A stretch of DNA of 64,000 nt from Dictyostelium discoideum (lineage: Eukaryota). Made by a program: the position numbers and the translations under genes. The DNA is taken from positions 480,001 to 544,000 of the forward strand of contig CM000150.2 of NCBI GenBank assembly GCA_000004695.1, in the 5' to 3' direction. Positions 12,136-38,709 of this stretch are shown in pieces. The stretch's first letter is position 1, and each line of letters begins with the position of its first letter. The notes beneath the pieces are model-generated. The model made no database searches. It had not been told where the DNA came from and was given only the letters and a program-made list of their open reading frames with translations.

Positions 12136-13425
12136 TAAATAAAAATGAAGACAATAGTAATACTACTAATAATAATTTAATTAAATCAATTAATAAAGAA
12201 GTTGAAAATTCATCAGTTAATAATAATGGTTTCATTTCAATGAATCAACAAAAACAAAATTATCATTATAATATACCAACATCACTTAAAGATATTAAAT
12301 CAATAATTATTAAATCTCAAAAATTAAAAGGTCAATTACAATCTTTAAAACAAGTTTTTAAACAAAATATAATTATAAATAATCAAGAAGTAATTGAACA
12401 ACAAGTAGATGCTATTAAACAACAGCAACAGCAACAACAAGAACAACAACAAGAACAAGAACAAGAACAACAACAACAACAAGATGGTGAATCAATATCA
12501 TTATCATCATCAACATCATCAGGTATAACAATATCATCATTATCAAATATTGAATATAATCCAAGTATAGCATTTAAATTGGGTAAAGAATTTGTAATTG
12601 GTAATTTATTCATTGATCAAATTATATTATTTTTAGAATTTCTATATGGTATTGCATTAGAGATTGAAACTAATTTACAATATTGGGAATCAATTGAACC
12701 AACAATATACTATTTACAAAAGTCACCTTTATTTTGGTTAAAATATTATCATCAACAATTGAATAGAAGAATACAATTCTCAAATAAATTTAGTGAACTT
12801 CATAATTTAAAACAACCAAAACCAATACTTTATATTTCAAATCTTTTAAATAAAGTAAATTCTTTTATTTTAAATAAACAACCATCATCACAACAAGTCG
12901 AGCAACAACAACAACAACAACAAGAAAGAGATGAGCAACAACAACAACAACAACAACAACAGCAACAACAACAACAACATAATAATAGTCATCATCATCA
13001 TCATCATCGAAATGAAAATGAAAAAAAAAAGAAATCAAAAAGAATTAAACATCCAAAAATAGAATTATTAGATAAAATTCAAAAATTAAAATCATATCAA
13101 GTTGTAATTTCTGTTATTATTGGTAGATTAACATTTTTATTAGATTCTTTAAAAATTAATACAAATAATAACAATAACAACAACAACACTGCAGATAATA
13201 ATAATAATAATTTAAATGATAATGAATCAATTAAAAGATTTAGTGAATTAATGTCAAAATCAAGTATAATTATATTTGATTCATTATTATTATTTAATGA
13301 ATTATTTAAAAAGAATAAAGAATCAAATGATAATGATAAGAAAGTAGATGATGATGACGAATTAATTAAATTATCAAAAGATTTAATTAATGAAATTATT
13401 AATATTAGAAATGAAGATGGAGATC

Positions 13426-15109: not shown

Positions 15110-18317
<3,208 letters not shown>

Positions 18318-18515: not shown

Positions 18516-20338
18516 TTATTCATCAACTCCTATAAAACCTTTAGCATAATTAATTTTTAATTTTTCATTATAAACAAAAGGACTTACAAATGTTGAGTCT
18601 TTTGATTCTTTGTATTTTTTTTCAATCATTTTAGCTATTTTATGTTGTCTAATAACTTGATCAGAATAATCATCATCAATGTTTATCTTATTGAAAATTG
18701 AATTCCATTTTTCTTTTTTTGAATGGTAGATTGATTCCATTTCACTTAATTTTTCAAAAGCTTCACATGCACTTGGACGATCATAATCATTATGACTAAG
18801 CATTGAATAGATTAAATCACTTATTGGCAATGGAATTGAATCATGTAAAATTGGTCTAAGGAAATTGCGGACTCCATTATTTATTTGGGAATTTTCCCTA
18901 AGATTTCCAAAAGGATAAATATATTTCACTCCAATATATGGTATTGATGCACAAATTTCAAATAAAACAACACCCAATGCGAAAATATCAGTTTTAGTAT
19001 TTGCAACACTGTTGGAGGTGGCTTCAGGTGGTTGAAAACTTGATGTTCCAGCAAATTTCCTTAAGGTCTCTAGGTTTTCTGTTGAAAAAAAACGTGCAGT
19101 ACCAAAATCACAAACTTTAATTAAACCATTATCATTTACCAAAAAATTTTTAGATTTTAAATCTCTGTGAATTAAAGGACCATTTGGATTGGTGTGGATA
19201 TCATAAGCGCAATGAACCACACCAAAGGCATACCTAAAGAATTGATCAAATGATGTCATCTTTTCATTTCTTAAAACATCAAATAGAGTACCCTTTGAAC
19301 AATACTCTAAGAATAGGAATAAAGATTTTTCTTTATAGAAATAACCATATAAACCAACTGTTGATGGAGTTTGTGATAAGGACATTGATTCAACTTCTTT
19401 AACCACTTCATCTTTATTTGATTTATTTACTTCGCACTTTTTAACAGCACAGACTTTTTTTCATCTCCAATGGTATAATTTAATTTATAAACTTCACCAA
19501 ATGATCCTCTACCAATAAAATCGGTTAAAAGAGTACTATTAAAAGATTCAAATTGAAGGCATTTCTGTAATGGTGGTGCATCCTTTCCTTCAATCAATGG
19601 TTGAATTCTTGACATATTAACTGGAAAATAATGAAGTAAAAAACTATTAAATGATGGTGATTTTATAATATTCATTGAACGAATACCTAAAATTTCAAAC
19701 AATACAAATGTTCGAGCATGACAAAGGACCATAAAATTAGTAAAGGTTTTGATGATATTACTAATTTCAGTAACCATAATTAATAATGGACCATTTTTAT
19801 AAATCTCTTTCATCTTCATACCTGGGTCCCTCTTGATTGAACTATTTTTATCTTCAAGATATGGTTTTGCACCAAAAGCTAAAAGAATTTTGATAATATT
19901 TTCATCTTTAAGTTTTATTGCTAAATGAAGTGGAACAGATAATCTATTATTTCTTATGTTTGGATCTGCTCCACAAACCAATAATGCTGCAATAACTGGG
20001 GCACTTTCTGATTTTAAAGTTTTTAAGGCAATGTGAATTGCTGTATTACCATTATAGTATTGATAATTTAAATCAACATTCATTGCGGAGAGTTTACAAA
20101 AAAATGTAACATAATTTTTAAATAATTCAATTTTAGTTTGTTTTTCATCAAAGATTTTATTCCATTCCGATTCCATACTACTATTTGAATTACCCAATAT
20201 TGATGAGATTGATGGTAATGATTTTGGATTGATAATTGAATAATAAAGTATATTTGACTTTAAACTAGTTAAATTATATAAGTATCACAATATAAAATTA
20301 ATAAATAATATATTTATGTGTAATAAAATATTATATAG

Positions 20339-20388
<50 letters not shown>

Positions 20389-20958
20389 ATTATAAAAATA
20401 ATAATAATTATAAAAATAATAATAATAAACTTACTTTTCATTTTTATAAAAAACTTCTTGCAATAAATCAAGTTTTTCAATCAAAACTAATAAACTATTC
20501 AATTTATTGACGTCAGTTATTTTATCAATTGTTTCTCTAATTAAGTTAATAAATCCTTTGATAAAAACTGGGTTGAATCTGTTTTGATTTGAAATCAATA
20601 AATTGATTGCTTCTAATTCCAATCCATTTAAATAGTAGGTTTTAAATTTTTTAAATAATACCAATAGATTTAAATCTTTCTTAAATTCTTCCATTTTTTC
20701 ATTTTCCTTAAAAGATATTAATTTTCCATTAACTTTCACACCATTATCTTTTGTTTTTATATTGGTTTTATGAGTGATTTTAAATTTTTTTTTTTTATAA
20801 ATTATATAATCTTCAAACATATTTAAATCATCTGTTTTAGAACCAATAATTATCTGATCTTCATTAAAAGTTTCCTTTGGAGGAATTATTGACTTTAACT
20901 TGGATTTTAAATTATTTATACTTTTTTTTAATTCAAATTTATTTTTATCTTGATTTTC

Positions 20959-21033
<75 letters not shown>

Positions 21034-21192
21034 TTCATTATTATTATTTTGATTTTCCTTATTATTTTTATTATTATTAATTATATTTTGATTTTCATTA
21101 TTATTAATATTTTGACTATCATTATTATTTATATTTTGATTTTCATTATTATTTATATTTTGATTTTCATTATTATTTATATTTTGATTTTC

Positions 21193-21264
<72 letters not shown>

Positions 21265-21319
21265 ATTATTTTTATTATTAATATTATTTTTATTATTTTT
21301 ATTATTATTATTATTATTG

Positions 21320-21381
<62 letters not shown>

Positions 21382-21561
21382 ATTATTATTATTAATTCCA
21401 ATTATACTTTCATTTTTTTTTTTGTCTGGATCTATTACTAAACATTGGAGTAATATTTTTGATGAGATGAAATTATTTAATAATTCATAATTTTGGAAAT
21501 TTACCAAATTACCAAATTTTTTTTGGAAATTTTGGAAATCTTTTTCAATTTCCTTTTGCAT
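18516..21561 (-). CDS. N-rich ankyrin-repeat protein kinase (TKL-like), merged model complement(join(18516..20264,20435..21561)); a -1 frameshift in an A7 run at 19455..19461 breaks the kinase domain in this assembly
   Basis: ORF 20431..21561 ends ...EVFYKNE-AA|GTAAGT. After a 170-nt AT-rich intron ending AACTAG, the frame continues without a stop (NLKSNILYYSIINPKSLPSISSILGNSNSSMESEW...) into the ankyrin repeats (GNTAIHIALK..., SVPLHLAIKLKDENIIKILLAFGAKP). Kinase subdomains follow: GRGSFGEVY, VCAVKK (only if one extra A is present in the A7 run), HRDLKSKNFLV, DFGTAR. Confidence 0.6.
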
Positions 21562-21578: not shown

Positions 21579-21639
<61 letters not shown>

Positions 21640-23985: not shown

Positions 23986-26744
23986 ATGGAGAAAAAATTA
24001 TTAATAATAGTTATCATCTTTTTATTTTCAATTATCCAAGTATTTTGTAGAATTGATTCTAGTATGTATTAAACAAAAAAAAAAAACCAAAGTTTTAATA
24101 ATTTTTTAAAAAACATATTGTATTAATAATAAAAAACTTTAAATGAAAAATAGAAACATTTGTAATTTCAAATGAAACATTCCTATCATACCATTTTCCA
24201 GTTGGTAGTGAATATTTTTCATCATTAAATTTTGAACTTTTAGTAGGGCCATCATTTCAATTGGATTTTTAATGTATTACTTTCAATAGTACATTTTGTT
24301 TTTCAAAAATTGATCAAGAAAATAAAAAACAATTGTATGGTAAATCCATTACCTACTCAACACAAGAAACCTATGATTTGGATAAAAAAAGGCTACCAAC
24401 TCCAATAGTTTCTTCACCTTTCCAAAAACCAACAAAAGGTGGAACCTCAATTTTAAAAGGTACTTATTTAACATTTTTTGAAAAAAATTATTATGAAGTT
24501 ATCTACCCAGAAAAACAAACAATTGATATTTTGAATTCAAAATCATTATAATTCGATGCAACAAATGTTAAAGTTAATTGTCCACCTGGTTGTGGTTATC
24601 AAATAATTAAATGTGAGAATGGTAAATTATTTAATTTTAGTTATTCAAATCCATCAGTATTTGATTATAAAATAAATTCATCAAATATTATTGTAAATGG
24701 ATCTGATTTTTGTGATAGTTCTTATTCTTCAAATATTACAATTGATGGTGTTATCATTCCAAATTCAAATTATCAAAAAGATGAAGACTCAATTGTAATT
24801 ATTTATACTCAACAACATACAACCAAATCATTAATGAAAATAGAAACAAGCAATGTAACATCTGTTGAAATTGAAATTGTTTTTAAATCAGAACCATTAA
24901 TAATAAATTCAATTCCATATAGTAAAGGTGGTTTAATTATTTTAGAAGGTTTAAGATTATCTTCAAATACAAATAAAAACAATAATAACAATATAATTAT
25001 TAAAATTGGAAATACAACATGTTCAAATGCAATTTCAATATCAAATGAATCAATCACATGTAATTTAAATCCGGGTATAAATAAATCAGTTACTTTAAAT
25101 AATTTACCAGTTTCAGTTACAATTAATAATATTACAAATGAAAATACATTATTATTTAATTATGGTATGGTCAAATTAAATCCAAATAAATATAGTTTAC
25201 CAGATCGTGTTTTACAATTAAATGGTGATTGTCTCGGAAATTCAAATAGTACTATTGTTTATTTAAATGGAAAAGAAACATTATTAAATGATTTAAAAAT
25301 AAATAACCAAGAAACAACTTTATCATTTAAAATACCAGATGAATTTAAATCAAAATTAAATGTTTCAATCAAGGTAAATGATATTTTATCAAATGAAATT
25401 CAAATTGATATTTCATTTTATGCAAGTCATTCAAATGAACAACCAAGTACAAATGGTAAAACAAATATTATATTCACATTATATAATATTAAATCTGAAA
25501 ATTATAATAAAATACCATCAATTATTATAATTCCTGAACAAATTGTAATAAATGGTGTTTCAGTAAATTCACCAACCAATCAAGATGTTCATTCGTATTC
25601 ATTTTTAATTCCAGCTGGGTGTGGTAAAAAAGATATTCAAATTATAATTGGTAGTCAATCATGTTTGTCATCAATTACATACTTTGAACCAATTATTAAA
25701 AATTGTTTAGTATCAGGTTTTGATGGTACAAATGGAAATATAATTTGTGATGGTAGTTTTGGTAATAAAGATTATTTAATTAAATCATCTGTACTATTTT
25801 CAAATGATGAAATTGTACCACCATCAATCAATAGTACAACATTTTCGTTCCCTCTAATATCAGGTTATCACAGTGATGATTTAATTTTTCAAATGTGCGG
25901 TGTTCAAAGTAAACCATTTAAATTAAACATCTCACCATCATTAAAAGGAATCAATCACAGTCAAATGGAAACATTAGGTGGTAAATTTTACATTCTTGGT
26001 GAATTCTTTAGTGCAAATATAAATTGTAGTGTATTTTGCAATGATAAAGAATATGAAAAACATTTTGAAAACTCAAAGACGATTTCATTCGATTTACAAA
26101 TTCCAGGTCCAAATGATATTACATGTAATTATACATTTGATAATGGAAAAAATACTGGTGATTTTAAGATTGAATATCCTTTACCATTAATAGAAAATAC
26201 GAGCTCAATAAATGTAAATGGTGGAAATTTAACAATTTATGGTAAAAACTTTTATAATATTTCAAATATCAAAGTTGAAGTTGATAATCAATTAAAATGT
26301 AATAATATTGAATTTATTAATTTAAATAGTTTAACCTGTTTCTTACCACCATTTAATGAAACAAGAAAACAACCATTATTTAATGATCAAAAACTATTAT
26401 TAAATTCATCAACAACTATTTTTAGCAAAAAATTATTATTAAATGTTACATTTGAAAGTAAAACATGGAGTGGATATATTTTTCAATATTCAAAAGAAGA
26501 AATAAAAAATAATGGTACAAGTGAAAATTCAACCAATGATATTTTAAATCATGAAAAAAATAATAATAATCAGAAAGATGGAAGTAGTTTAAGTAAAAAA
26601 AGTATAATATTATTATCAATATTATTACCTGGTTTTATTATTTTAATAGTTTCTTTAACAATTGTTATTCTTGTAATTAAAAAAAATAAAACAAAACATA
26701 GTAAAAATATGTCACCAAAAGAGAAAGAATTAATGAAACAATAA
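23986..26744 (+). pseudogene. tgr-like IPT/TIG membrane glycoprotein, array copy 1, pseudogene: in-frame TAA at 24270..24272 and 24549..24551, plus a Trp-to-Cys change
   Basis: Same exon structure as copies 2-4 (exon 1 23986..24061, exon 2 from 24154). LDFECIT is replaced by LDF*CIT (gaa to taa) and SLSFDAT by SL*FDAT (tca to taa). IKWENG is replaced by IKCENG. The distal 636 codons (24834..26744) remain open. Confidence 0.75.
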
Positions 26745-27059
26745 TAGTAGCAATAAAAATAATTTAATAATTATTAAATTATTAATTTATTATTTATATT
26801 TAATAATTAATATTATTTGTAATAGGGAAATGGGCATCTTCAAATATTTTTTATTTCTCTGATCATAAATTTGAACCTGACCGATTTTTTTCCAAATTTC
26901 AATTTCACATTCTCCCAACTCAACAAAAAGATATTACTTAAAAAACTATAAAATTATATCGAATAACAATTTTTAAAAAATAGTAATAATAAAAAAAAAA
27001 AAGAAACATTCAATAATAATAATGATTGAAAAGATGTTTTTAAATTGTTGATTGTTTAG

Positions 27060-27137
27060 AAGTTTGTATTTTTTTTTGAAAATCCAATTTTAACTTTAAA
27101 ATACAATTTAATGTTTTTGATAGTGTGTTTTTTATTT

Positions 27138-27171
<34 letters not shown>

Positions 27172-27660
27172 AATGTGTGTTAGTGTACTATGTTTTATTA
27201 GTTATGTGAGTTTGTTGTGTTTTTTCAATTTATTCTATTTAAAATAAAGATAATGTTTTCGATAGTGTGTTATTTTTCAATATTTGTCTAAGTTTGGAGA
27301 AGTGGGTGTTTTTTTCAAATAATTATTGTTTTATGAGTGTTTTTAAGTGGTTAAGTGTGATGAAATTTTTTATTTTTTGTTATTTTAAAAAAATACAAAG
27401 TGTTTTTGATAGTGTGTTAGTGTGTGTTTTTATTTAATTTATTTTTATTCAATTTTTTTAATTATTTTTTAATATTGTATAAATAAATAATAAAAAAAAA
27501 TAAAACATTATAATTTTTAATTTATTTTTTATTTTCATTTGTCAATATTAAAATTTACCAGTATAATAATTTATTATTTTTATCATTCACCAACAAATAA
27601 TAAAAAAAATTAATTATTTGTTTTAAAATATTAAAAAATTAAATCTGATTTTAAATAATT
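27060..27660 (+). promoter_or_regulatory. Conserved 5' module of the tandem units, present at about 23460..23985, 27060..27665, 30740..31340 and 34600..35176, containing repeated GT-rich boxes (putative G-box/GBF-type developmental elements)
   Basis: Blocks such as ggagaagtgggtgttttttt, gtttttgatagtgtgttagtgtgtgttttt and gtggttaagtgtgatg recur in the same order before each copy, embedded in otherwise A/T-only DNA. The TTTTGATAGTGTG motif occurs about three times per unit. Confidence 0.35.
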
Positions 27661-27665
27661 TTACA

Positions 27666-30414
27666 ATGGAGAAAAAATTACTAATAATAGTTATCGTCTT
27701 TTTATTTTCAACTATCCAAGTATTTTGTAGAATTGATGATAGTATGTATAAAACAAAAAAACAAAACTTTATCATTTTTCAAAAAACATATTGTATTAAT
27801 AAATGAAAACTTTAAATGAAAAATAGAAACATTTGTAATTTCAAATGAAACATACCTATCATACCATTTTCCTGTTGATAGTGAATACTTTTCATCATTA
27901 AATTTTGAACATTATGAAGGACCATCATTTCAATTGGATTTTGAATGTATTACTTTCAATGGCACAATTTGTTTTTCACAAATTTATCCAGAAATTAAAA
28001 AAAAAATTTATGGTACGTCAATTTCATATTCAACACAAAAAACATACAAATTAGATCAAGAATTGTTTCCAACTCCAATAGTTTCCTCACCTTTCCAACC
28101 TCCAACAAAAGGTGGAATCTCAATTTTAAAAGGTACTTTTTTAACATTTTCGGAAAAAACCTTTTATCAAGTTATCTACCCAAAAAAGCAAAAGATTTTT
28201 ATTTTAGATTCAGAATCGTTATCGTTCGATGCAACAAATTTTAAAGTTAATTGTCCACCTGGTTGTGGTTATCAAATAATTAAATGGGATAATGGTAATT
28301 TATTTAATTTTAGTTATTCAAATCCATCAATATCGGTTGTTAAAATAAATCCATCAAATATTATTGTAAATGGATCTGATTTTTGTGATAGTTCTTATTC
28401 TTCAAATATTACAATTGATGGAGTTATCATTCCAAATTCAAATTATGAAAAAGATGAAGACTCAATTGTAATTATTTATACTCAACAACACACAATCAAA
28501 TCATTAATGAAAATTGAAACAAGCAATGTAACATCTGTTGAAATTGAAATTGTTTTTAAACCAGAACCTTTATTAATAAACTCGGTTCCATATAGTAAAG
28601 GTGGTTTATTAATTTTAGAAGGTTTAAGATTATCTTCAAATACAACAAATAAAAATAATAACAATAATAATATAATTATTAAAATTGGAAATATTACATG
28701 TTCAAACGCAATTTCAATCTCAAATGATTCAATCACATGTAATTTAAATCCGGGTTTTAATAATAAATCAGTTACTTTAAATAATTTACCAGTTTCAGTT
28801 ACAATTAACAATATTACAAATGAAAATAAATTATTATTTAATTATGGCATCGTTAAATTAAATCCAAATAAATATAGTTTACCAGATCGTGTTTTACAAT
28901 TAAATGGTGATTGTCTCGGAAATTCAAATGGTACTATAGTTTATTTAAATGGAAAAGAAACATTATTAAATGATTTAAAAATAAATAACCAAGAAACAAC
29001 TTTATCATTTAAAATACCAGATGAATTTAAATCAAAATTAAATGTTTCAATCAAGGTAAATGATATTTTATCAAATGAAATTCAAATTGATATTTCATTT
29101 TATGCAAGTCATTCAAATGAACAACCAAGTACAAATGGTAATACAAATATTATATTCACATTATATAATATTAAATCTGAAAATTATAATAAAATACCAT
29201 CAATTATTATAATTCCTGAACAAATTGTAATAAATGGTGTTTCAGTAAATTCACCAACCAATCAAGATGTTCATTCGTATTCATTTTTAATTCCAGCTGG
29301 GTGTGGTAAAAAAGATATTCAAATTATAATTGGTAGTCAATCATGTTTGTCATCAATTACATACTTTGAACCAATTATTAAAAATTGTTTAGTATCAGGT
29401 TTTGATGGTACAAATGGAAATATAATTTGTGATGGTAGTTTTGGTAATAAAGATTATTTAATTAAATCATCTGTACTATTTTCAAATGATGAAATTATAC
29501 CACCATCAATCAATAGTACAACATTTTCGTTCCCGCTTATATCAGGTTATCACAGTGATGATTTAATTTTTCAAATGTGTGGTGTTCAAAGTAAACCATT
29601 TAAATTAAACATCTCACCATCATTAAAAGGAATCAATCAAAGTCAAATGGAAACATTAGGTGGTAAATTTTACATTCTTGGTGAATTCTTTAGTGCAAAT
29701 ATAAATTGTAGTGTATTTTGCAATGATAAAGAATATGAAAAAAAATTTGAAAACTCAAAGACGATTTCATTCGATTTACAAATTCCAGGTCCAAATGATA
29801 TTACATGTAATTATACATTTGATAATGGAAAAAATACTGGTGATTTTAAGATTGAATATCCTTTACCATTAATAGAAAATACGAGTTCAATAAATGTAAA
29901 TGGTGGAAATTTAACAATTTATGGTAAAAACTTTTATAATGTTTCAAATATCAAAGTTGAAGTTGATAATCAATTAAAATGTAATAAAATTGAATTTATT
30001 AATTTAAATAGTTTAACCTGTTTCTTACCACCATTTATTGAAACATTATTTAATGATCAAAAACTATTATTAAATTCATCAACAACTATTTTTAGTAAAA
30101 AATTATTATTAAATGTTACATTTGAAAGTAAAACATGGAGTGGATATATTTTTCAATATTCAAAAGAAGAAATAAAAAATAATGATACAAGTGAAAATTC
30201 AACCAATGATATTTTAAATCATGAAAAAAATAATAATAATCAGAAAGATGGAAGTAGTTTAAGTAAAAAAAGTATAATATTATTATCAATATTATTACCT
30301 AGTTTTATTATTTTAATAGTTTCTTTGGCAATTGTTATTCTTGTAATTAAAAGAAATAAAACAAAACATAGTAAAAATATGTCATCAAAAGAGAAAGAAT
30401 TAATGAAACAATAA
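27666..30414 (+). CDS. tgr-like IPT/TIG type-I membrane glycoprotein, array copy 2, join(27666..27741,27827..30414)
   Basis: Signal peptide MEKKLLIIVIVFLFSTIQVFC in exon 1 (GTATGT...ATAG intron, phase 1). At least three IPT/TIG-like modules (e.g. PYSKGGLLILEGLRLSS...IIIKIGNITCSNAISISNDSITCNLNPG; YPLPLIENTSSINVNGGNLTIYGKNFYNVSNIKVEVDNQLKC...LTCFLPPF). More than 50 N-x-S/T sequons. C-terminal TM SIILLSILLPSFIILIVSLAIVILVI with a short basic tail. Lacks 4 aa (FIETLFNDQ) relative to copies 1, 3 and 4 (FNETRKQPLFNDQ). Confidence 0.8.
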
Positions 30415-30807
30415 TAGTAGCAATAAAAATAATTTAATAATTATTAAATTATTAATTTATTATTTACATTTAATAATTAATATTATTTGTAATAGGGAAA
30501 TGGGCATCTTCAAATATTTTTTATTTCTCTGATCATAAATTTGGACCTGACCGATTTTTTTCCAAATTTCAATTTCACATTCTCCCAACTCAACAAAAAG
30601 ATATTACTTAAAAAACTATAAAATTATATCAAATAACAATTTTTAAAAAATAGTGATAATAAAAAAAAAAAAGAAACATTCAATAATAATAATAATTGAA
30701 AAGATGTTTTTAAATTGTTGATTGTTTAGAAGTTTGTATTTTTTTTTGAAAATCCAATTTTAACTTTAAAATACAATTTAATGTTTTTGATAGTGTGTTT
30801 TTTATTT

Positions 30808-30840
<33 letters not shown>

Positions 30841-31340
30841 AATGTGTGTTAGTGTACTATGTTTTATTAGTTATGTGAGTTTGTTGTGTTTTTTCAATTT
30901 ATTCTATTTAAAATAAAGATAATGTTTTCGATAGTGTGTTATTTTTCAATATATTTTTGTTGTCTAAGTTTGGAGAAGTGGGTGTTTTTTTCAAATAATT
31001 ATTGTTTTATGAGTGTTTTTAAGTGGTTAAGTGTGATGAAATTTTTTATTTTTTGTTATTTTAAAAAAATACAAAGTGTTTTTGATTGTGTGTTAGTGTG
31101 TGTTTTTATTTAATTTATTTTTATTCAATTTTTTTAATTATTTTTTAATTTTGTATAAATAAATAATAAAAAAAATAAAACATAATAATTTTTAATTTAT
31201 TTTTTATTTTCATTTGTCAATATTAAAATTTACCAGTATAATAATTTATTATTTTTATCATTCACCAACAAATAATAAAAAAAATTAATTATTTGTTTTA
31301 AAATATTAAAAAATTAAATCTGATTTTAAATAATTTTACA

Positions 31341-34098
31341 ATGGAGAAAAAATTACTAATAATAGTTATCGTCTTTTTATTTTCAACTATCCAAGTATTT
31401 TGTAGAATTGATGATAGTATGTATAAAACAAAAAAACAAAACTTTATCATTTTTCAAAAAACATATTTTATTAATAAATGAAAACTTTAAATGAAAAATA
31501 GAAACATTTGTAATTTCAAATGAAACATACCTATCATACCATTTTCCTGTTGGTAGTGAATACTTTTCATCATTAAATTTTGAACATTATGAAGGACCAT
31601 CATTTCAATTGGATTTTGAATGTATTACTGGCAATGGTACAGTTTGTTTTTCACAAATTTATCCAGAAATTAAAAAAAAATTTTATGGTACGTCAATTTC
31701 ATATTCAACACAAAAAACATACAAATTAGATCATGAATTGTTTCCCACTCCAATAGTTTCCTCACCTTTCCGACCACCAACAAAAGGTGGAATCTCAATT
31801 TTAAAAGGTACTTATTTAACATTTTCTGAAAGACTTTCCTATTATGAAGTTATCTACCCAAAAAAACAAAAGATTGTGATTTCAGATTCAGAATCATTAT
31901 CATTCGATGCAACAAACGTTAAAGTTAATTGTCCACCTGGTTGTGGTTATCAAATAATTAAATGGGAGAATGGCCAATTATTTAATTTTAGTTATTCAAA
32001 TCCATCAGTATTTGATTATAAAATAAATCCATCAAATATTATTGTAAATGGATCTGATTTTTGTGATAGTTCTTATTCTTCAAATATTACAATTGATGGT
32101 GTTATCATTCTAAATTCAAACTACCAAAAAGATGAAGACTCAATTGTAATTATTTATACTCAACAACACACGACCAAATCATTAATGAAAATTGAAACTA
32201 GCAATGTAACTTCTGTTGAAATTGAAATTGTTTTTAAACCAGAACCATTAATTATAAATTCAATTCCATATATTAAAGGTGGTTTAATTATTTTAGAAGG
32301 TTCAAGATTATCTTCAAATACAAATAAAAACAATAATAATAATATAATTATTAAAATTGGAAATATTACATGTTCAAACGCAATTTCAATCTCAAATGAA
32401 TCAATCACATGTAATTTAAATCCGGGTATATATAATAAATCAGTTCCCTTAAATAATTTACCAGTTTCAGTTACAATTAACAATATTACAAATGAAAATA
32501 CATTATTATTTAATTATGGTATGGTCAAATTAAATCCAAATAAATATAGTTTACCAGATCGTGTTTTACAATTAAATGGTGATTGTCTTGGAAATTCAAA
32601 TAGTACCATAGTTTATTTAAATGGAAAAGAAACATTATTAAATGATTTAAAAATAAATAACCAAGAAACAACTTTATCATTTAAAATACCAGATGAATTT
32701 AAATCAAAATTAAATGTTTCAATCAAGGTAAATGATATTTTATCAAATGAAATTCAAATTGATATTTCATTTTATGCAAGTTATTCTAATGAACAACCAA
32801 GTACAAATGGTAATACAAATATAATATTCACATTATATAATATTAAATCTGAAAATTATAATAAAATACCATCAATTATTATAATTCCTGAACAAATTGT
32901 AATAAATGGTGTTTCAGTAAATTCACCAACCAATCAAGATGTTCATTCGTATTCATTTTTAATTCCAGCTGGGTGTGGTAAAAAAGATATTCAAATTATA
33001 ATTGGTAGTCAATCATGTTTGTCATCAATTACATACTTTGAACCAATTATTAAAAATTGTTTAGTATCAGGTTTTGATGGTACAAATGGAAATATAATTT
33101 GTGATGGTAGTTTTGGTAATAAAGATTATTTAATTAAATCATCTGTACTTTTTTCAAATGATGAAATTGTACCACCATCAATCAATAGTACAACATTTTC
33201 GTTCCCACTAATATCAGGTTATCACAGTGATGATTTAATTTTTCAAATGTGCGGTGTTCAAAGTAAACCATTTAAATTAAACATCGCACCATCTTTGAAA
33301 AGAATCGATCAAAGTCAAATGGAAACATTGGGTGGTAAATTTTACATTCTTGGCGAATTCTTTGGTGTAAATATAAATTGTAGTGTATTTTGCAATGATA
33401 AAGAATATGAAAAAAAATTTGAAAACTCAAAGACGATTTCATTCGATTTACAAATTCCAGGTCCAAATGATATTACATGTAATTATACATTTGATAATGG
33501 AAAAAATACTGGTGATTTTAAGATTGAATATCCTTTACCATTAATAGAAAATACGAGTTCAATAAATGTAAATGGTGGAAATTTAACAATTTATGGTAAA
33601 AACTTTTATAATGTTTCAAATATCAAAGTTGAAGTTGATAATCAACTAAAATGTAATAATTTTGAATTTATTAATTTAAATAGTTTAACCTGTTTCTTAC
33701 CACCATTTAATGAAACAAGAAAACAATCATTATTTAATGATCAAAAACTATTATTAAATTCATCAACAACTATTTTTAGCAAAAAATTATTATTAAATGT
33801 TACATTTGAAAGTAAAACATGGAGTGGATATATTTTTCAATATTCAAAAGAAGAAATAAAAAATAATGATACAAGTGAAAATTCAACCAATGATATTTTA
33901 AATCATGAAAAAAATAATAATAATAATCAGAAAGATGGAAGTAGTTTAAGTAAAAAAAGTATAATATTATCAATATTATTACCTGGTTTTATTATTTTAG
34001 TAGTTTCTTTAACAATTGTTATTATTGTAATTAAAAGAAATAAAACAAAACATAGTAAAAATATGTCATCAAAAGAGAAAGAATTAATGAAACAATAA
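31341..34098 (+). CDS. tgr-like IPT/TIG type-I membrane glycoprotein, array copy 3, join(31341..31416,31502..34098)
   Basis: Same architecture as copy 2. Intact ORF with scattered substitutions clustered in the N-terminal domain. One-residue shorter TM (SIILSILLPG...). Confidence 0.8.
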
Positions 34099-35176
34099 TA
34101 GTAGCAATAAAAATAATTTAATAATTATTAAATTATTAAATTATTATTTATATTTAATAATTAATATTATTTGTAATAGGGAAATGGATGTATCTTCAAA
34201 ATATTTTTTATTTCTCTGATCATAAATTTGAACCTGACCGATTTTTTTCCAAATTTCAATTTCACATTCTCCCAACTCAACAAAAAGATATTACTTAAAA
34301 AACGATAAAATTATATCAAATAACAATTTTTAAAAAATAGTAATAAAAAAAAAAAAATTAAAAAGAAACATTCAATAATAATAAAAATTAAAAAAAATGT
34401 TTTTAAATTGTTGATTGTTTAGAAGTTTGTATTTTTTTTTGAAAATCCAATTTTAACTTTGGAGAAGTGGGTGTGTTTTTAATTTTTTTTTTTTGTAAAT
34501 CTAATTATAACTTAGGAGAAGTGGGTGTTTTTTTTTTTTTTTTTTTTTATGAAAGTGTGTTAATGTGTGATGTTTTGATTTGTTAAATGATTTTTTCTCT
34601 TTTAATTCAATTTGTTTTTTTTTAAAATACAATTTAATGTTTTTGATAGTGTGCATTTTTTATTTGTTTTTTTTTTTTTTTTTTTTGGAATGTGTGTTAG
34701 TGTACTATGTTTTATAAGTTATGTGAGTTTGTTGTGTTTTTTCAATTTATTTTATTTAAAATAAAGATAATGTTTTCGATAGTGTGTTATTTTTCAATAT
34801 ATTTTTGTTATCTGAGTTTGAAGAAGTGGGTGTTTTTTCAAATAATTATTGTTTTATGAGTGTTTTTAAGTGGTTAAGTGTGATGAAATTTTTTATTTTT
34901 GTTATTTTAAAAAAAAATACAAAGTTTTTTTGATAGTGTGTTAGTGTGTGTTTATTTAATGTATTTTTATTCAATTTTTTTAATTATTTTTTAATTATAT
35001 TTGAATAAATAATAAAAAAAATAAAACATTAAAATATTTAATTTTTTTTTTTTTTTCATTTGTCAATATTAAAATTTACCAGTATAATTTATTATTTTTA
35101 CCATTCACCAATAAAAAAAAAAATTATTATTTATTTTAAAAATAAAAAACTAAATCTGATTTTAAATAGTTTTACA

Positions 35177-38100
35177 ATGGAGAAAAAATTATTAATAATA
35201 GTTATCATCTTTTTATTTTCAACTATCCAAGTATTTTGTCAAATTGATTATAGTATGTATAAAACAAAAAAACAAACTTTTAATAATTTTTTAAAATATA
35301 TTGTATTAATAATTGAAAACTTTAAATTAAAAATAGAAACATTTGTAATTTCAAATGAAACATACCTATCATACCATTTTCCAGTTGGTAGTGAATATTT
35401 TTCATCATTAAATTTTGAACGTTTCGTAGGTCCATCATTTCAACTGGATTTTGAATGTATTACTTTCAATGGTACAGTTTGTTTTTCTCAAATTAATCAA
35501 GAAAATAAAAAACAATTGTATGGTACATCCATTACCTATACAACAAAAGTAACTATTAGTTTGTATAAGAATAACCTTCCAACTCCAATAGTTTCTTCAC
35601 CTTTCCAACCTCCAACAAAAGGTGGAATCTCAATTTTAAAAGGTACCTATTTAACATTTTCTGAAAGACTTTCCTATTATGAAGTTATCTACCCAAAAAA
35701 ACAAAAGATTGTGATTTCAGATTCAGAATCATTATCATTCGATGCAACAAACGTTAAAGTTAATTGTCCACCTGGTTGTGGTTATCAAATAATTAAATGG
35801 GAGAATGGCCAATTATTTAATTTTAGTTATTCAAATCCATCAGTATTTGATTATAAAATAAATCCATCAAATATTATTGTAAATGGATCTGATTTTTGTG
35901 ATAGTTCTTATTCTTCAAATATTACAATTGATGGTGTTATCATTCCAAATTCAAACTACCAAAAAGATGAAGACTCAATTGTAATTATTTATATTCAACA
36001 ACACACAACCAAATCATTATTGAAAATAGAAACAAGCAATGTAACATCTGTTGAAATTGAAATTGTTTTTAAACCAGAACCATTAATTATAAATTCAATT
36101 CCATATAGTAAAGGTGGTTTAATTATTTTAGATGGTTCAAGATTATCTTCAAATACAAATAAAAACAATAATAATATAATTATTAAAATTGGAAATATTA
36201 CATGTTCAAACGCAATTTCAATCTCAAATGAATCAATCACATGTAATTTAAATCCGGGTATATATAATAAATCAGTTGCCTTAAATAATTTACCAGTTTC
36301 AGTTACAATTAATAATATTACAAATGGAAATACATTATTATTTAATTATGGTATGGTCAAATTAAATCCAAATAAATATAGTTTACCAGATCGTATTTTA
36401 CAATTAAATGGTGATTGTCTCGGAAATTCAAATAGTACTATTGTTTATTTAAATGGAAAAGAAACATTATTAAATGATTTAAAAATAAATAACCAAGAAA
36501 CAACTTTATCATTTAAAATACCAGATGAATTTAAATCAAAATTAAATGTTTCAATCAAGGTAAATGATATTTTATCAAATGAAATTCAAATTGATATTTC
36601 ATTTTATGCAAGTCATTCTAATGAACAACCAAGTACAAATGGTAATACAAATATTATATTCACATTATATAATATTAAATCTGAAAATTATAATAAAATA
36701 CCATCGATTATAATTATTCCTGAACAAATTGTTATTAATGGTGTTTCAGTAAATTCACCAACCAACCAAGATGTTCATTTGTATTCATTTTTAATTCCAG
36801 CTGGGTGTGGTAAAAAAGATATTCAAATTATAATTGGTAGTCAATCATGTTTGTCATCAATTACATACTTTGAACCAATTATTAAAAATTGTTTAGTATC
36901 AGGTTTTGATGGTACAAATGGAAATATAATTTGTGATGGTAGTTTTGGTAATAAAGATTATTTAATTAAATCATCTGTACTTTTTTCAAATGATGAAATT
37001 GTACCACCATCAATCAATAGTACAACATTTTCGTTCCCTCTAATATCAGGTTATCACAGTGATGATTTAATTTTTCAAATGTGCGGTGTTCAAAGTAAAC
37101 CATTTAAATTAAACATCTCACCATCATTAAAAAGAATCAATCAAAGTCAAATGGAAACATTGGGTGGTAAATTTTACATTCTTGGTGAATTCTTTAGTGC
37201 AAATATAAATTGTAGTGTATTTTGCAATGATAAAGAATATGAAAAACATTTTGAAAACTCAAAGACGATTTCATTCGATTTACAAATTCCAGGTCCAAAT
37301 GATATTACATGTAATTATACATTTGATAATGGAAAAAATACTGGTGATTTTAAGATTGAATATCCTTTACCATTAATAGAAAATACGAGTTCAATAAATG
37401 TGAATGGTGGAAATTTAACAATTTATGGTAAAAACTTTTATAATGTTTCAAATATCAAAGTTGAAGTTGATAATCAATTAAAATGTAATAATATTGAATT
37501 TATTAATTTAAACAGTTTAACCTGTTTCTTACCACCATTTAATGAAACAAGAGAGCAATCATTATTTAATGATCAAAAACTATTATTAAATTCATCAACA
37601 ACTATTTTTAGCAAAAAATTATTATTAAATGTTACATTTGAAAGTAAAACATGGAGTGGATATATTTTTCAATATTCAAAAGAAGAAATAAAAAATAATG
37701 GTACAAGTGAAAATTCAAGTAATGATATAATAGATCATGAAAAAAACAATAATACTACAAAAAATGGTAAAGGCGGTATCAATTTAAGTAAAGAAAGTAA
37801 AATAATAATTTCTGTAGTCTTACCTGGTGTTATTATTTTAATAATTTTATCGGTAGTAGTAATCTATCGTATTAGAATAAATAGAATTACACGAAATACA
37901 TATGTGAAAAAAATTAATGAAATGAAAACAATAACACCAGAAGAGAAACGAGATGAAATAGATGAATCAGATGAAATTAAAAAAAAACTTGATATTGAAA
38001 TGTCAGAATTAAGATCCAATCTATTCATACACTCAATCAGTTATACTAACACACTCAAAGAACAACAAATGGAAAGGGATCAAATCAATAAAAGTCCAAG

Positions 38101-38377
38101 TCTACAAATTCAACCACAAAATAATCAATTGAATATAATTAATAATGGTGAAGGTTCAAGTCAACAAATTCAACCACAAAGTAATCAATCAAATATTATT
38201 AATAATGATGAGGGTTCAAGCCACCAATTTCAACCTGAAATTAATCAATCCAATACAATTAATAATAGTGAAGGTTCAAGTCAACAAATTCAACCACAAA
38301 ATAATCAATTGAATATAATTAATAATGATGTGGGTTCAAGTCACCAATCTAAGCAAAATGATAGTACTGGTTGCTGA
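35177..38377 (+). CDS. tgr-like IPT/TIG type-I membrane glycoprotein, array copy 4, join(35177..35252,35337..38377), with a divergent TM and a roughly 200-aa cytoplasmic tail carrying three EGSSQQIQPQNNQLNIINN-type repeats
   Basis: Ectodomain is collinear with copies 2 and 3 up to ...YSKEEIKNNGTSENS. It then diverges (KNGKGGINLSKESKIIISVVLPGVIILIILSVVVIY...) into a long tail with an acidic stretch and three 19-aa repeats. The 3' flank is also unrelated to those of units 1-3. Confidence 0.75.
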   Translation: MEKKLLIIVIIFLFSTIQVFCQIDYSMYKTKKQTFNNFLKYIVLIIENFKLKIETFVISNETYLSYHFPVGSEYFSSLNFERFVGPSFQLDFECITFNGTVCFSQINQENKKQLYGTSITYTTKVTISLYKNNLPTPIVSSPFQPPTKGGISILKGTYLTFSERLSYYEVIYPKKQKIVISDSESLSFDATNVKVNCPPGCGYQIIKWENGQLFNFSYSNPSVFDYKINPSNIIVNGSDFCDSSYSSNITIDGVIIPNSNYQKDEDSIVIIYIQQHTTKSLLKIETSNVTSVEIEIVFKPEPLIINSIPYSKGGLIILDGSRLSSNTNKNNNNIIIKIGNITCSNAISISNESITCNLNPGIYNKSVALNNLPVSVTINNITNGNTLLFNYGMVKLNPNKYSLPDRILQLNGDCLGNSNSTIVYLNGKETLLNDLKINNQETTLSFKIPDEFKSKLNVSIKVNDILSNEIQIDISFYASHSNEQPSTNGNTNIIFTLYNIKSENYNKIPSIIIIPEQIVINGVSVNSPTNQDVHLYSFLIPAGCGKKDIQIIIGSQSCLSSITYFEPIIKNCLVSGFDGTNGNIICDGSFGNKDYLIKSSVLFSNDEIVPPSINSTTFSFPLISGYHSDDLIFQMCGVQSKPFKLNISPSLKRINQSQMETLGGKFYILGEFFSANINCSVFCNDKEYEKHFENSKTISFDLQIPGPNDITCNYTFDNGKNTGDFKIEYPLPLIENTSSINVNGGNLTIYGKNFYNVSNIKVEVDNQLKCNNIEFINLNSLTCFLPPFNETREQSLFNDQKLLLNSSTTIFSKKLLLNVTFESKTWSGYIFQYSKEEIKNNGTSENSSNDIIDHEKNNNTTKNGKGGINLSKESKIIISVVLPGVIILIILSVVVIYRIRINRITRNTYVKKINEMKTITPEEKRDEIDESDEIKKKLDIEMSELRSNLFIHSISYTNTLKEQQMERDQINKSPSLQIQPQNNQLNIINNGEGSSQQIQPQSNQSNIINNDEGSSHQFQPEINQSNTINNSEGSSQQIQPQNNQLNIINNDVGSSHQSKQNDSTGC

Positions 38378-38709
38378 TAAATAATTAAAATAATAAAAAA
38401 AAAATAAAAAAATAAAAAAATAAAAAAATAGTAATAATATAATCCTTTTTTAAAATAATAAATTATAAACAATATTAATTTTTAATTTTTAAAATTATTA
38501 TTTTAGTATTTTCTTTTTACACCTTCAAAGCATAGGTACTTTTTAAAATTGAGATTTTTTTGTTTTTTTGTGTTGGAAAGGAGCAAAATTTGAAAAGATC
38601 TTTCTAAAAATAGAATTAATTTGAATGACAAAGTTTTTTTTTTTTTTTTTTTAAGATTTTTTTTTTTTTTTTTTTTTTATCATTTTTTTTTTTATTTTTA
38701 AAATCAAAA

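Follow-up and report, generated by a model that had tools for sequence, protein, structure and literature searches.

Results

Three reading frames and a conserved intron

The window, by which we mean the whole 64,000-nucleotide stretch that was analysed, is part of chromosome 1 of Dictyostelium discoideum AX4 and has a G+C content of 20.3 %. The AX4 genes DDB_G0267656 and DDB_G0267660 each have an identical counterpart among the other ORFs of the window. On the minus strand, three ORFs (20431..21561, 19427..20197, and 18516..19406) are present as described in an original prediction, which had read them as a single gene for an ankyrin-repeat kinase of about 955 amino acids. The features of the locus are as follows.

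20435..21561, minus strand: exon 1, 1127 nt (375 codons plus 2 bases), with the ATG at 21561..21559
21396..20950, minus strand: Asn-rich low-complexity tract of exon 1, preceded by a conserved N-terminal stretch
20949..20437, minus strand: region of exon 1 of ~170 aa (aa 205-375), conserved in orthologues
20265..20434, minus strand: spliceosomal intron, 170 nt, phase 2, from GTAAGT at 20434..20429 to AACTAG ending at 20265
19430..20264, minus strand: part of exon 2 in frame with exon 1, comprising a linker, the ankyrin repeats, the G-loop, and 8 out-of-frame codons
20195..20197, minus strand: TTG codon, an internal Leu and neither a start nor a myristoylation site, the apparent M of MGNSNSS
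20053..19946, minus strand: ankyrin repeat 1, aa 447-482 (PF00023, 38.4 bits against a cut-off of 21.1)
19933..19859, minus strand: ankyrin repeat 2, aa 487-511, below threshold
19513..19496, minus strand: kinase G-loop GRGSFG, in frame with exon 1
19455..19461, minus strand: A7 homopolymer, site of a 1-nt deletion; A8 (GAA-AAA-AAA-GTC) is ancestral in close relatives
18516..19454, minus strand: rest of exon 2, read in the -1 frame, with the kinase core, the C-terminal tail, and, at 18518..18516, the original stop
19451..19440, minus strand: VAVK motif (CAVK), -1 frame
19427..19429, minus strand: premature stop TAA, created by the frameshift
19317..19319, minus strand: codon TTC (Phe), TAC (Tyr) in contigs with A8
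19169..19146, minus strand: HRDLKSKN motif, -1 frame
19109..19101, minus strand: DFG motif, -1 frame

The intron proposed between the first two ORFs holds up, as do its GTAAGT donor, its phase, and its end at AACTAG. It is not pure A/T, as had been claimed, since 160 of its 170 nucleotides are A or T and the rest are 5 G and 5 C (5.9 % G+C), and its homopolymer run is 48 nt (T48) rather than T45. Its ends are GT…AG with a GTAAGT-type donor, and its size and base composition fall within the criteria for Dictyostelium introns in the methods of Goldberg et al. 2006 (60-250 nt, <15 % G+C; PMC1420674). Its removal keeps the frame between exon 1 and the start of exon 2, that is, between the first two ORFs only, and the spliced frame is open over the junction, with …EVFYKNE on one side and NLKSNILYYSIINPKSLPSISSILGNSNSS… on the other (NLKSNILYY…).

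Orthologues were retrieved in two ways. A protein hit, P0002, led to locus L006 (D. cf. discoideum), and an IRE1-like neighbouring gene served as the anchor for L007 and L008, both labelled D. discoideum, and for L009 and L010 of D. citrinum. In tblastn, the frame changes exactly at residue 375 in every locus from L006 to L010. Amino acids 374-958 form one HSP in each of the five, the frame change being only at the intron. An intron with a GTAAG donor is found at the identical codon and in phase 2 in all five and in L011, a near-identical assembly (GCA_054883475.1) that we located through an identical 923-aa neighbour. Intron length varies, being 125 nt in L006, 122 in L007, 107 in L008, 74 in both L009 and L010, and 148 in L011. 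Between the window and L006, the indels in the intron are 64, 1, 16, and 2 nt, as a set not multiples of 3, and those in the exons are 3, 24, 102, and 6 nt, all multiples of 3, apart from the A7 run and an 11-nt lesion of L006. L008, L009, and L010 splice to intact ORFs matching their annotated lengths of 1085, 1054, and 1132 aa. The published conceptual translation of the locus, in the part given across the junction, agrees with the position as well. From these comparisons, the 170-nt segment is a real intron, the splicing of which in vivo we infer. Sequence searches with the locus returned no transcript-derived match.

For aa 205-375 of exon 1, dN/dS against L006 is ~0.2, indicating that this conserved part is coding; the N-terminus of exon 1 is also conserved in orthologues. 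The 22 codons between the acceptor and TTG 20197..20195 are likewise conserved as protein, and the observation that MGNSNSS opens on TTG and not ATG was correct.

The intact orthologues (L008, annotated as ACTFIR, 1085 aa; D. citrinum L009, 1054 aa, and L010, 1132 aa) have the same architecture as the AX4 locus. An N-rich region, one phase-2 intron, ankyrin repeats, and a kinase domain are shared among them and with ACTFIY_010776/P0002. Their kinase domains are uninterrupted, unlike that of AX4, and protein identity to AX4 is 65-83 %. In D. discoideum-type genomes, the orthologue adjoins an IRE1-like gene, as it does in AX4. That neighbour (16152..18317, plus strand) is convergent with the locus, carries Pkinase and Ribonuc_2-5A/KEN domains, and is 984 aa long in L011. 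Its end lies 198 nt from the stop of the locus, and the gap is full of AATTTATTT/TAAAA-type tandem repeats. In D. citrinum (L009:10378-13616 and L010:10584-14056), the orthologue and the IRE1-like gene share a strand, whereas in D. discoideum-type genomes the two are convergent, a difference that indicates a local inversion.

A one-nucleotide deletion interrupts the kinase domain

The original prediction had the frame running without a stop from exon 1 through the ankyrin repeats and the kinase domain. This is true of the ankyrin repeats but not of the kinase, as the spliced frame ends at TAA 19429..19427, 20 codons past the G-loop GRGSFG. The -1 frame, in which the rest of the kinase is encoded, is closed upstream by TGA 19463..19461. 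The switch between frames is limited to 19460..19430, 31 nt that begin with the A7 run at 19461..19455, and no intron therefore fits between the second and third ORFs. The lesion is positioned in kinase subdomain I-II, between the G-loop and the VAIK lysine. The product encoded after splicing is 654 aa long, ends in …GDEKKSVLLKSAK at the stop, and lacks the catalytic core; a 958-aa protein, close to the ~955 aa predicted, is obtained only after one A is added to the A7 run. Joining the three ORFs into one gene is thus right for the first two, whereas the third is cut off by the 1-nt deletion.

Five read-assembled genomic contigs from five SRA runs (L001-L005) are 99.9 % identical to the window over 18.5-20.36 kb. 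They differ from the gene in the window at two places only, with A8 in place of A7 and, at 19318, A in place of T, and their ORF (P0001) encodes an uninterrupted ankyrin-kinase of 553 aa. A8 is also found at the site in L007 and L008, which have GAA-AAA-AAA-GTC there (GAAAAAAAAGTC). L006, L009, and L010 have other in-frame codons there, and their coding sequence is continuous. L011, by comparison, has A7, and T at 19318. The differences between L011 and the window over ~22.8 kb are 6 SNPs and some indels, the latter mostly in long homopolymer runs. As A7 recurs in this near-identical assembly, we regard the deletion as probably genuine in the AX4-type lineage; we take the independence of L011 from its other differences to the window. 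The Phe codon at 19317..19319 looks like a derived substitution of the AX4-type allele, and so the second such change, beside the deletion, within the broken kinase domain, because the A8 contigs, L006, L008, and the paralogue-like protein P0003 all have Tyr.

The locus has the marks of a unitary pseudogene. A disabling mutation, the 1-nt deletion, lies in an otherwise conserved coding region. There is an intact syntenic counterpart in L008, whose 1085-aa ORF adjoins the IRE1-like gene, and for exon 2 an intact allele is present in L001-L005. The lesion is reproduced in L011, an assembly judged independent by its other differences. The intact form has two exons and encodes ~950-1130 aa after removal of one canonical phase-2 intron. 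In the AX4-type allele, the A8 run that follows the glycine loop and precedes the VAIK lysine has become shorter by one A. Ribosomes on the spliced mRNA would then shift frame, add 8 wrong residues (SVLLKSAK), and stop. The outcome would be an N-terminal/ankyrin fragment of 654 aa without the catalytic core, where the fate of the transcript or of the truncated protein is something that we infer.

Domain content of the intact form

Only on the sequence repaired by one A does Pkinase (PF00069) match as a whole, with 146.1 bits against a cut-off of 31.7 (E = 1.7e-42). The match is unbroken from aa 625 to 880, covers profile positions 6-259 of 263, and ends at 18753. The repaired translation holds all of the catalytic motifs, GRGSFG, CAVK, HRDLKSKN, and DFG; in this genome, the kinase domain is not in one continuous frame. 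Against L006, dN/dS of the kinase is 0.5-0.6, and the dN/dS values are compatible with a gene that may be fast-evolving but constrained. By its domains, the intact gene would encode a kinase of the Dictyostelium lineage in which an Asn-rich N-terminal region is followed by the conserved ~170-aa segment, 2-3 ankyrin repeats, and an ePK domain. Its predicted role, judged from domain content, would be to phosphorylate proteins and to bind partners through the ankyrin repeats.

Ankyrin repeats and an ePK domain also occur in one polypeptide in the animal kinases ILK, TNNI3K, and RIPK4/ANKK1. The domain combination is alike, but only 2-3 repeats are detected in the gene in the window, and its kinase domain is of no recognised family, the class being "Other-Unique". 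NEK1, CTR1, PDK1, ZAK, PLK2, and Aurora all lie at much the same distance from this kinase domain (E ~1e-22 to 1e-24), in agreement with its class as published in Table S2 of Goldberg et al. (PMC1420674). A paralogue or parental gene was also sought within the window, where the one match was to the IRE1-like gene, through weak similarity in the kinase.

Correspondence to a catalogued pseudogene

Goldberg et al. 2006 (PLoS Genet 2:e38, PMC1420674) list 15 ePK pseudogenes in AX4 (Table S2 and Fig. 6), for which the criterion was frameshifts or stops in conserved regions. One row of Table S2 is DDB0216536p/DDB0216536ps, classed as Other/Other-Unique, with the motifs CAVK, HRDLKSKN, and DFG and the status of pseudogene. 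The conceptual protein given there for DDB0216536_ps opens MQKEIEKDFQ…, MQKEIEKDFQNFQKKFGN…, and spans the exon junction unbroken (…EVFYKNENLKSNILYY…, …LLQEVFYKNENLKSNILYYSIINPKSLPSISSIL…). In what the table gives, its N-terminal sequence is identical to that of the locus in the window over at least 400 residues, and the start, the exon 1/exon 2 junction, the CAVK, HRDLKSKN, and DFG motifs, and the pseudogene class are all equal. We are therefore confident, at a probability of roughly 0.9, that the locus at 21561..18516 on the minus strand is the catalogued AX4 kinase pseudogene DDB0216536_ps, frameshifted and not an intact gene.

On the evidence of that table, the gene model, the intron, and the pseudogene status were already published in 2006 (Goldberg et al. 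2006, PMC1420674). The window shows no departure from the listing of DDB0216536_ps, to which our analysis adds the precise change at 19461..19455, from A8 to A7, the intact allele in other D. discoideum-type genomes, and the confirmation of A7 in a second assembly. The original prediction is partly confirmed as an observation and partly supported in its interpretation. The importance of the result goes little past annotation hygiene, in that joining ORFs by eye can miss a frameshift. Annotation of the AX4 locus should remain that of a pseudogene.

Alternatives to a frameshifted pseudogene

The alternative that survives best, though we consider it very unlikely, is an error in the reference, in which AX4 truly has A8, the gene is intact with a product of 958 aa, and the homopolymer was miscalled as A7. 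The lesion is, after all, a 1-nt change in a homopolymer, and contigs of 99.9 % identity from five sequencing runs have A8. Those contigs also differ at 19318, and so come from a different allele or strain. L011, separately assembled, has A7 while differing from the window elsewhere; had the AX4 reference been used to polish it, the A7 there would be no independent evidence. Goldberg et al. (PMC1420674) corrected some genes from reads and ESTs, marked in Table S2 by the code "c", yet classed this locus "p", a pseudogene. The broken ORFs were not found as called genes in read-based assemblies, which would fit a miscall, but AX4 is plainly covered only in part by that collection. When the three ORFs, and the versions of them that begin at ATG, were looked up as exact sequences among the proteins and contigs, there was no match, and the AX4 IRE1-like protein is missing there too. 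Protein searches returned neither that protein nor the 83 %-identical ACTFIR/ACTFIW models, the genes of which are present in the contig index. An absent match in that collection is thus weak evidence.

Recoding is less probable again. Some full-length kinase could be restored in AX4 if ribosomes slipped by -1 on A_AAA_AAG or if transcription slipped on A7, and the slippery heptamer GA-A_AAA_AAG-TCT is correctly phased, such that a -1 slip gives the ancestral …GDEKKVCAVKK…. Relatives, however, are in frame at the site, with A8 or other in-frame codons, and need no frameshift. There are 123 AAAAAAG heptamers in the window, and A/T runs of 7 or more occur at 6.8 per kb, so that chance alone would produce the motif. 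Folding of the 90 nt downstream is unremarkable (MFE -9.6 kcal/mol, z = -0.04 against shuffles). Of the signs of programmed -1 frameshifting, then, the slippery heptamer is present, and a need conserved in relatives and a downstream structure are both lacking. We rejected programmed frameshifting and transcriptional slippage as unsupported, the frameshift being unconserved, the motif expected by chance, and the RNA downstream without unusual structure. That low-level decoding of A7, by ribosomal -1 or polymerase slippage, yields a trace of full-length ankyrin-kinase in AX4 seems only marginally less improbable.

A second, very short intron could in principle bridge the frameshift through removal of a 26-nt GT…AG segment, GTGCGAAGTAAATAAATCAAATAAAG. 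With the start, the stop, and the 148-nt intron of L011, exactly one such GT…AG removal opens a frame of 949 aa. A length of 26 nt is far under the 60-250 nt typical of Dictyostelium in the methods of Goldberg et al. 2006 (PMC1420674). The removal also leaves the CAVK codons out of frame and loses the VAIK lysine (…GDEKKSVLLK joined to NEVVKEV…), and the stretch is continuous coding sequence in all orthologues. Introns that mask frameshifts are, moreover, an annotation artefact documented for these pseudogenes in the same paper (PMC1420674). An intron bridging the second and third ORFs was rejected given the 31-nt switch zone and the fact that the sole candidate matching 949 aa has a length of 26 nt and takes the VAIK lysine with it; we regard it as next to impossible. 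Equally negligible is the reading of the three ORFs as one intact gene of ~955 aa with a single canonical intron, which has in its favour a real intron joining the first two pieces in frame and fails at the in-frame TAA, the 31-nt switch to a third piece in the -1 frame, and the 654-aa product.

Possible lesions in other lineages

Apart from the frameshifted AX4 pseudogene, two further lineages have out-of-frame deletions in exon 1 of this gene. At L006:5943-5965 (~20686 of the window), exon 1 lacks 11 nt between two TTTAA direct repeats, and the frame shifts. As a result, the annotation is split into genes of 256 aa and 643 aa (ACTFIY_010776). This deletion may have disabled the gene independently, or it may be an error of assembly. 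At L007:~12400-12440 (~21450 of the window), the ACTFIW orthologue is without 17 nt (CATCAAAAATATTACTA) near the N-terminus that are present in AX4 and L008. Its annotation of 1077 aa sidesteps the frameshift by means of a far-upstream ATG and an extra intron of ~1.6 kb.

In all, three lineages have three different out-of-frame lesions, A8 to A7 in AX4, 11 nt in L006, and 17 nt in L007. Provided that the L006 and L007 deletions are not assembly errors, this pattern points to a gene that may be dispensable and fast-evolving. We lean, with some reservation, toward the view that loss of function segregates as a polymorphism of this orphan kinase, with at least three independent disruptions within the D. 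discoideum complex. If so, the standard laboratory strain would be a natural knock-out. With an intact allele in other isolates, the function of the kinase is to be studied outside the AX4 background.

The record of L011 is affected as well. At L011:16609-19632 of GCA_054883475.1, equivalent to 18516..21561 of the window, the A7 frameshift is present, yet a 949-aa product is annotated. The annotation appears to hide the frameshift behind a bogus 26-nt intron, which excises the stop codon together with the catalytic lysine, and the record probably needs to be changed to a pseudogene.

Long homopolymer runs lie at 20339..20386 (48 nt, in the intron), at 21581..21636 (56 nt, upstream of the ATG), and at ~18500 in the 3' flank. 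Short-read contigs end exactly at long homopolymer runs. In L011, the intron, upstream, and 3'-flank runs are shorter by 22, 26, and 4 nt, which reflects either length polymorphism or the limits of assembly.

Further along the window, at ~24000..38400, large ORFs lie on the plus strand (24834..26744, 27934..30414, 31609..34098, and 35060..38377). Pfam Ig_TgrO1 matches are found in the first gene at the equivalent position of L011 and in the neighbours of L006, and the sequence of this region suggests a cluster of putative Tgr-family cell-surface genes.
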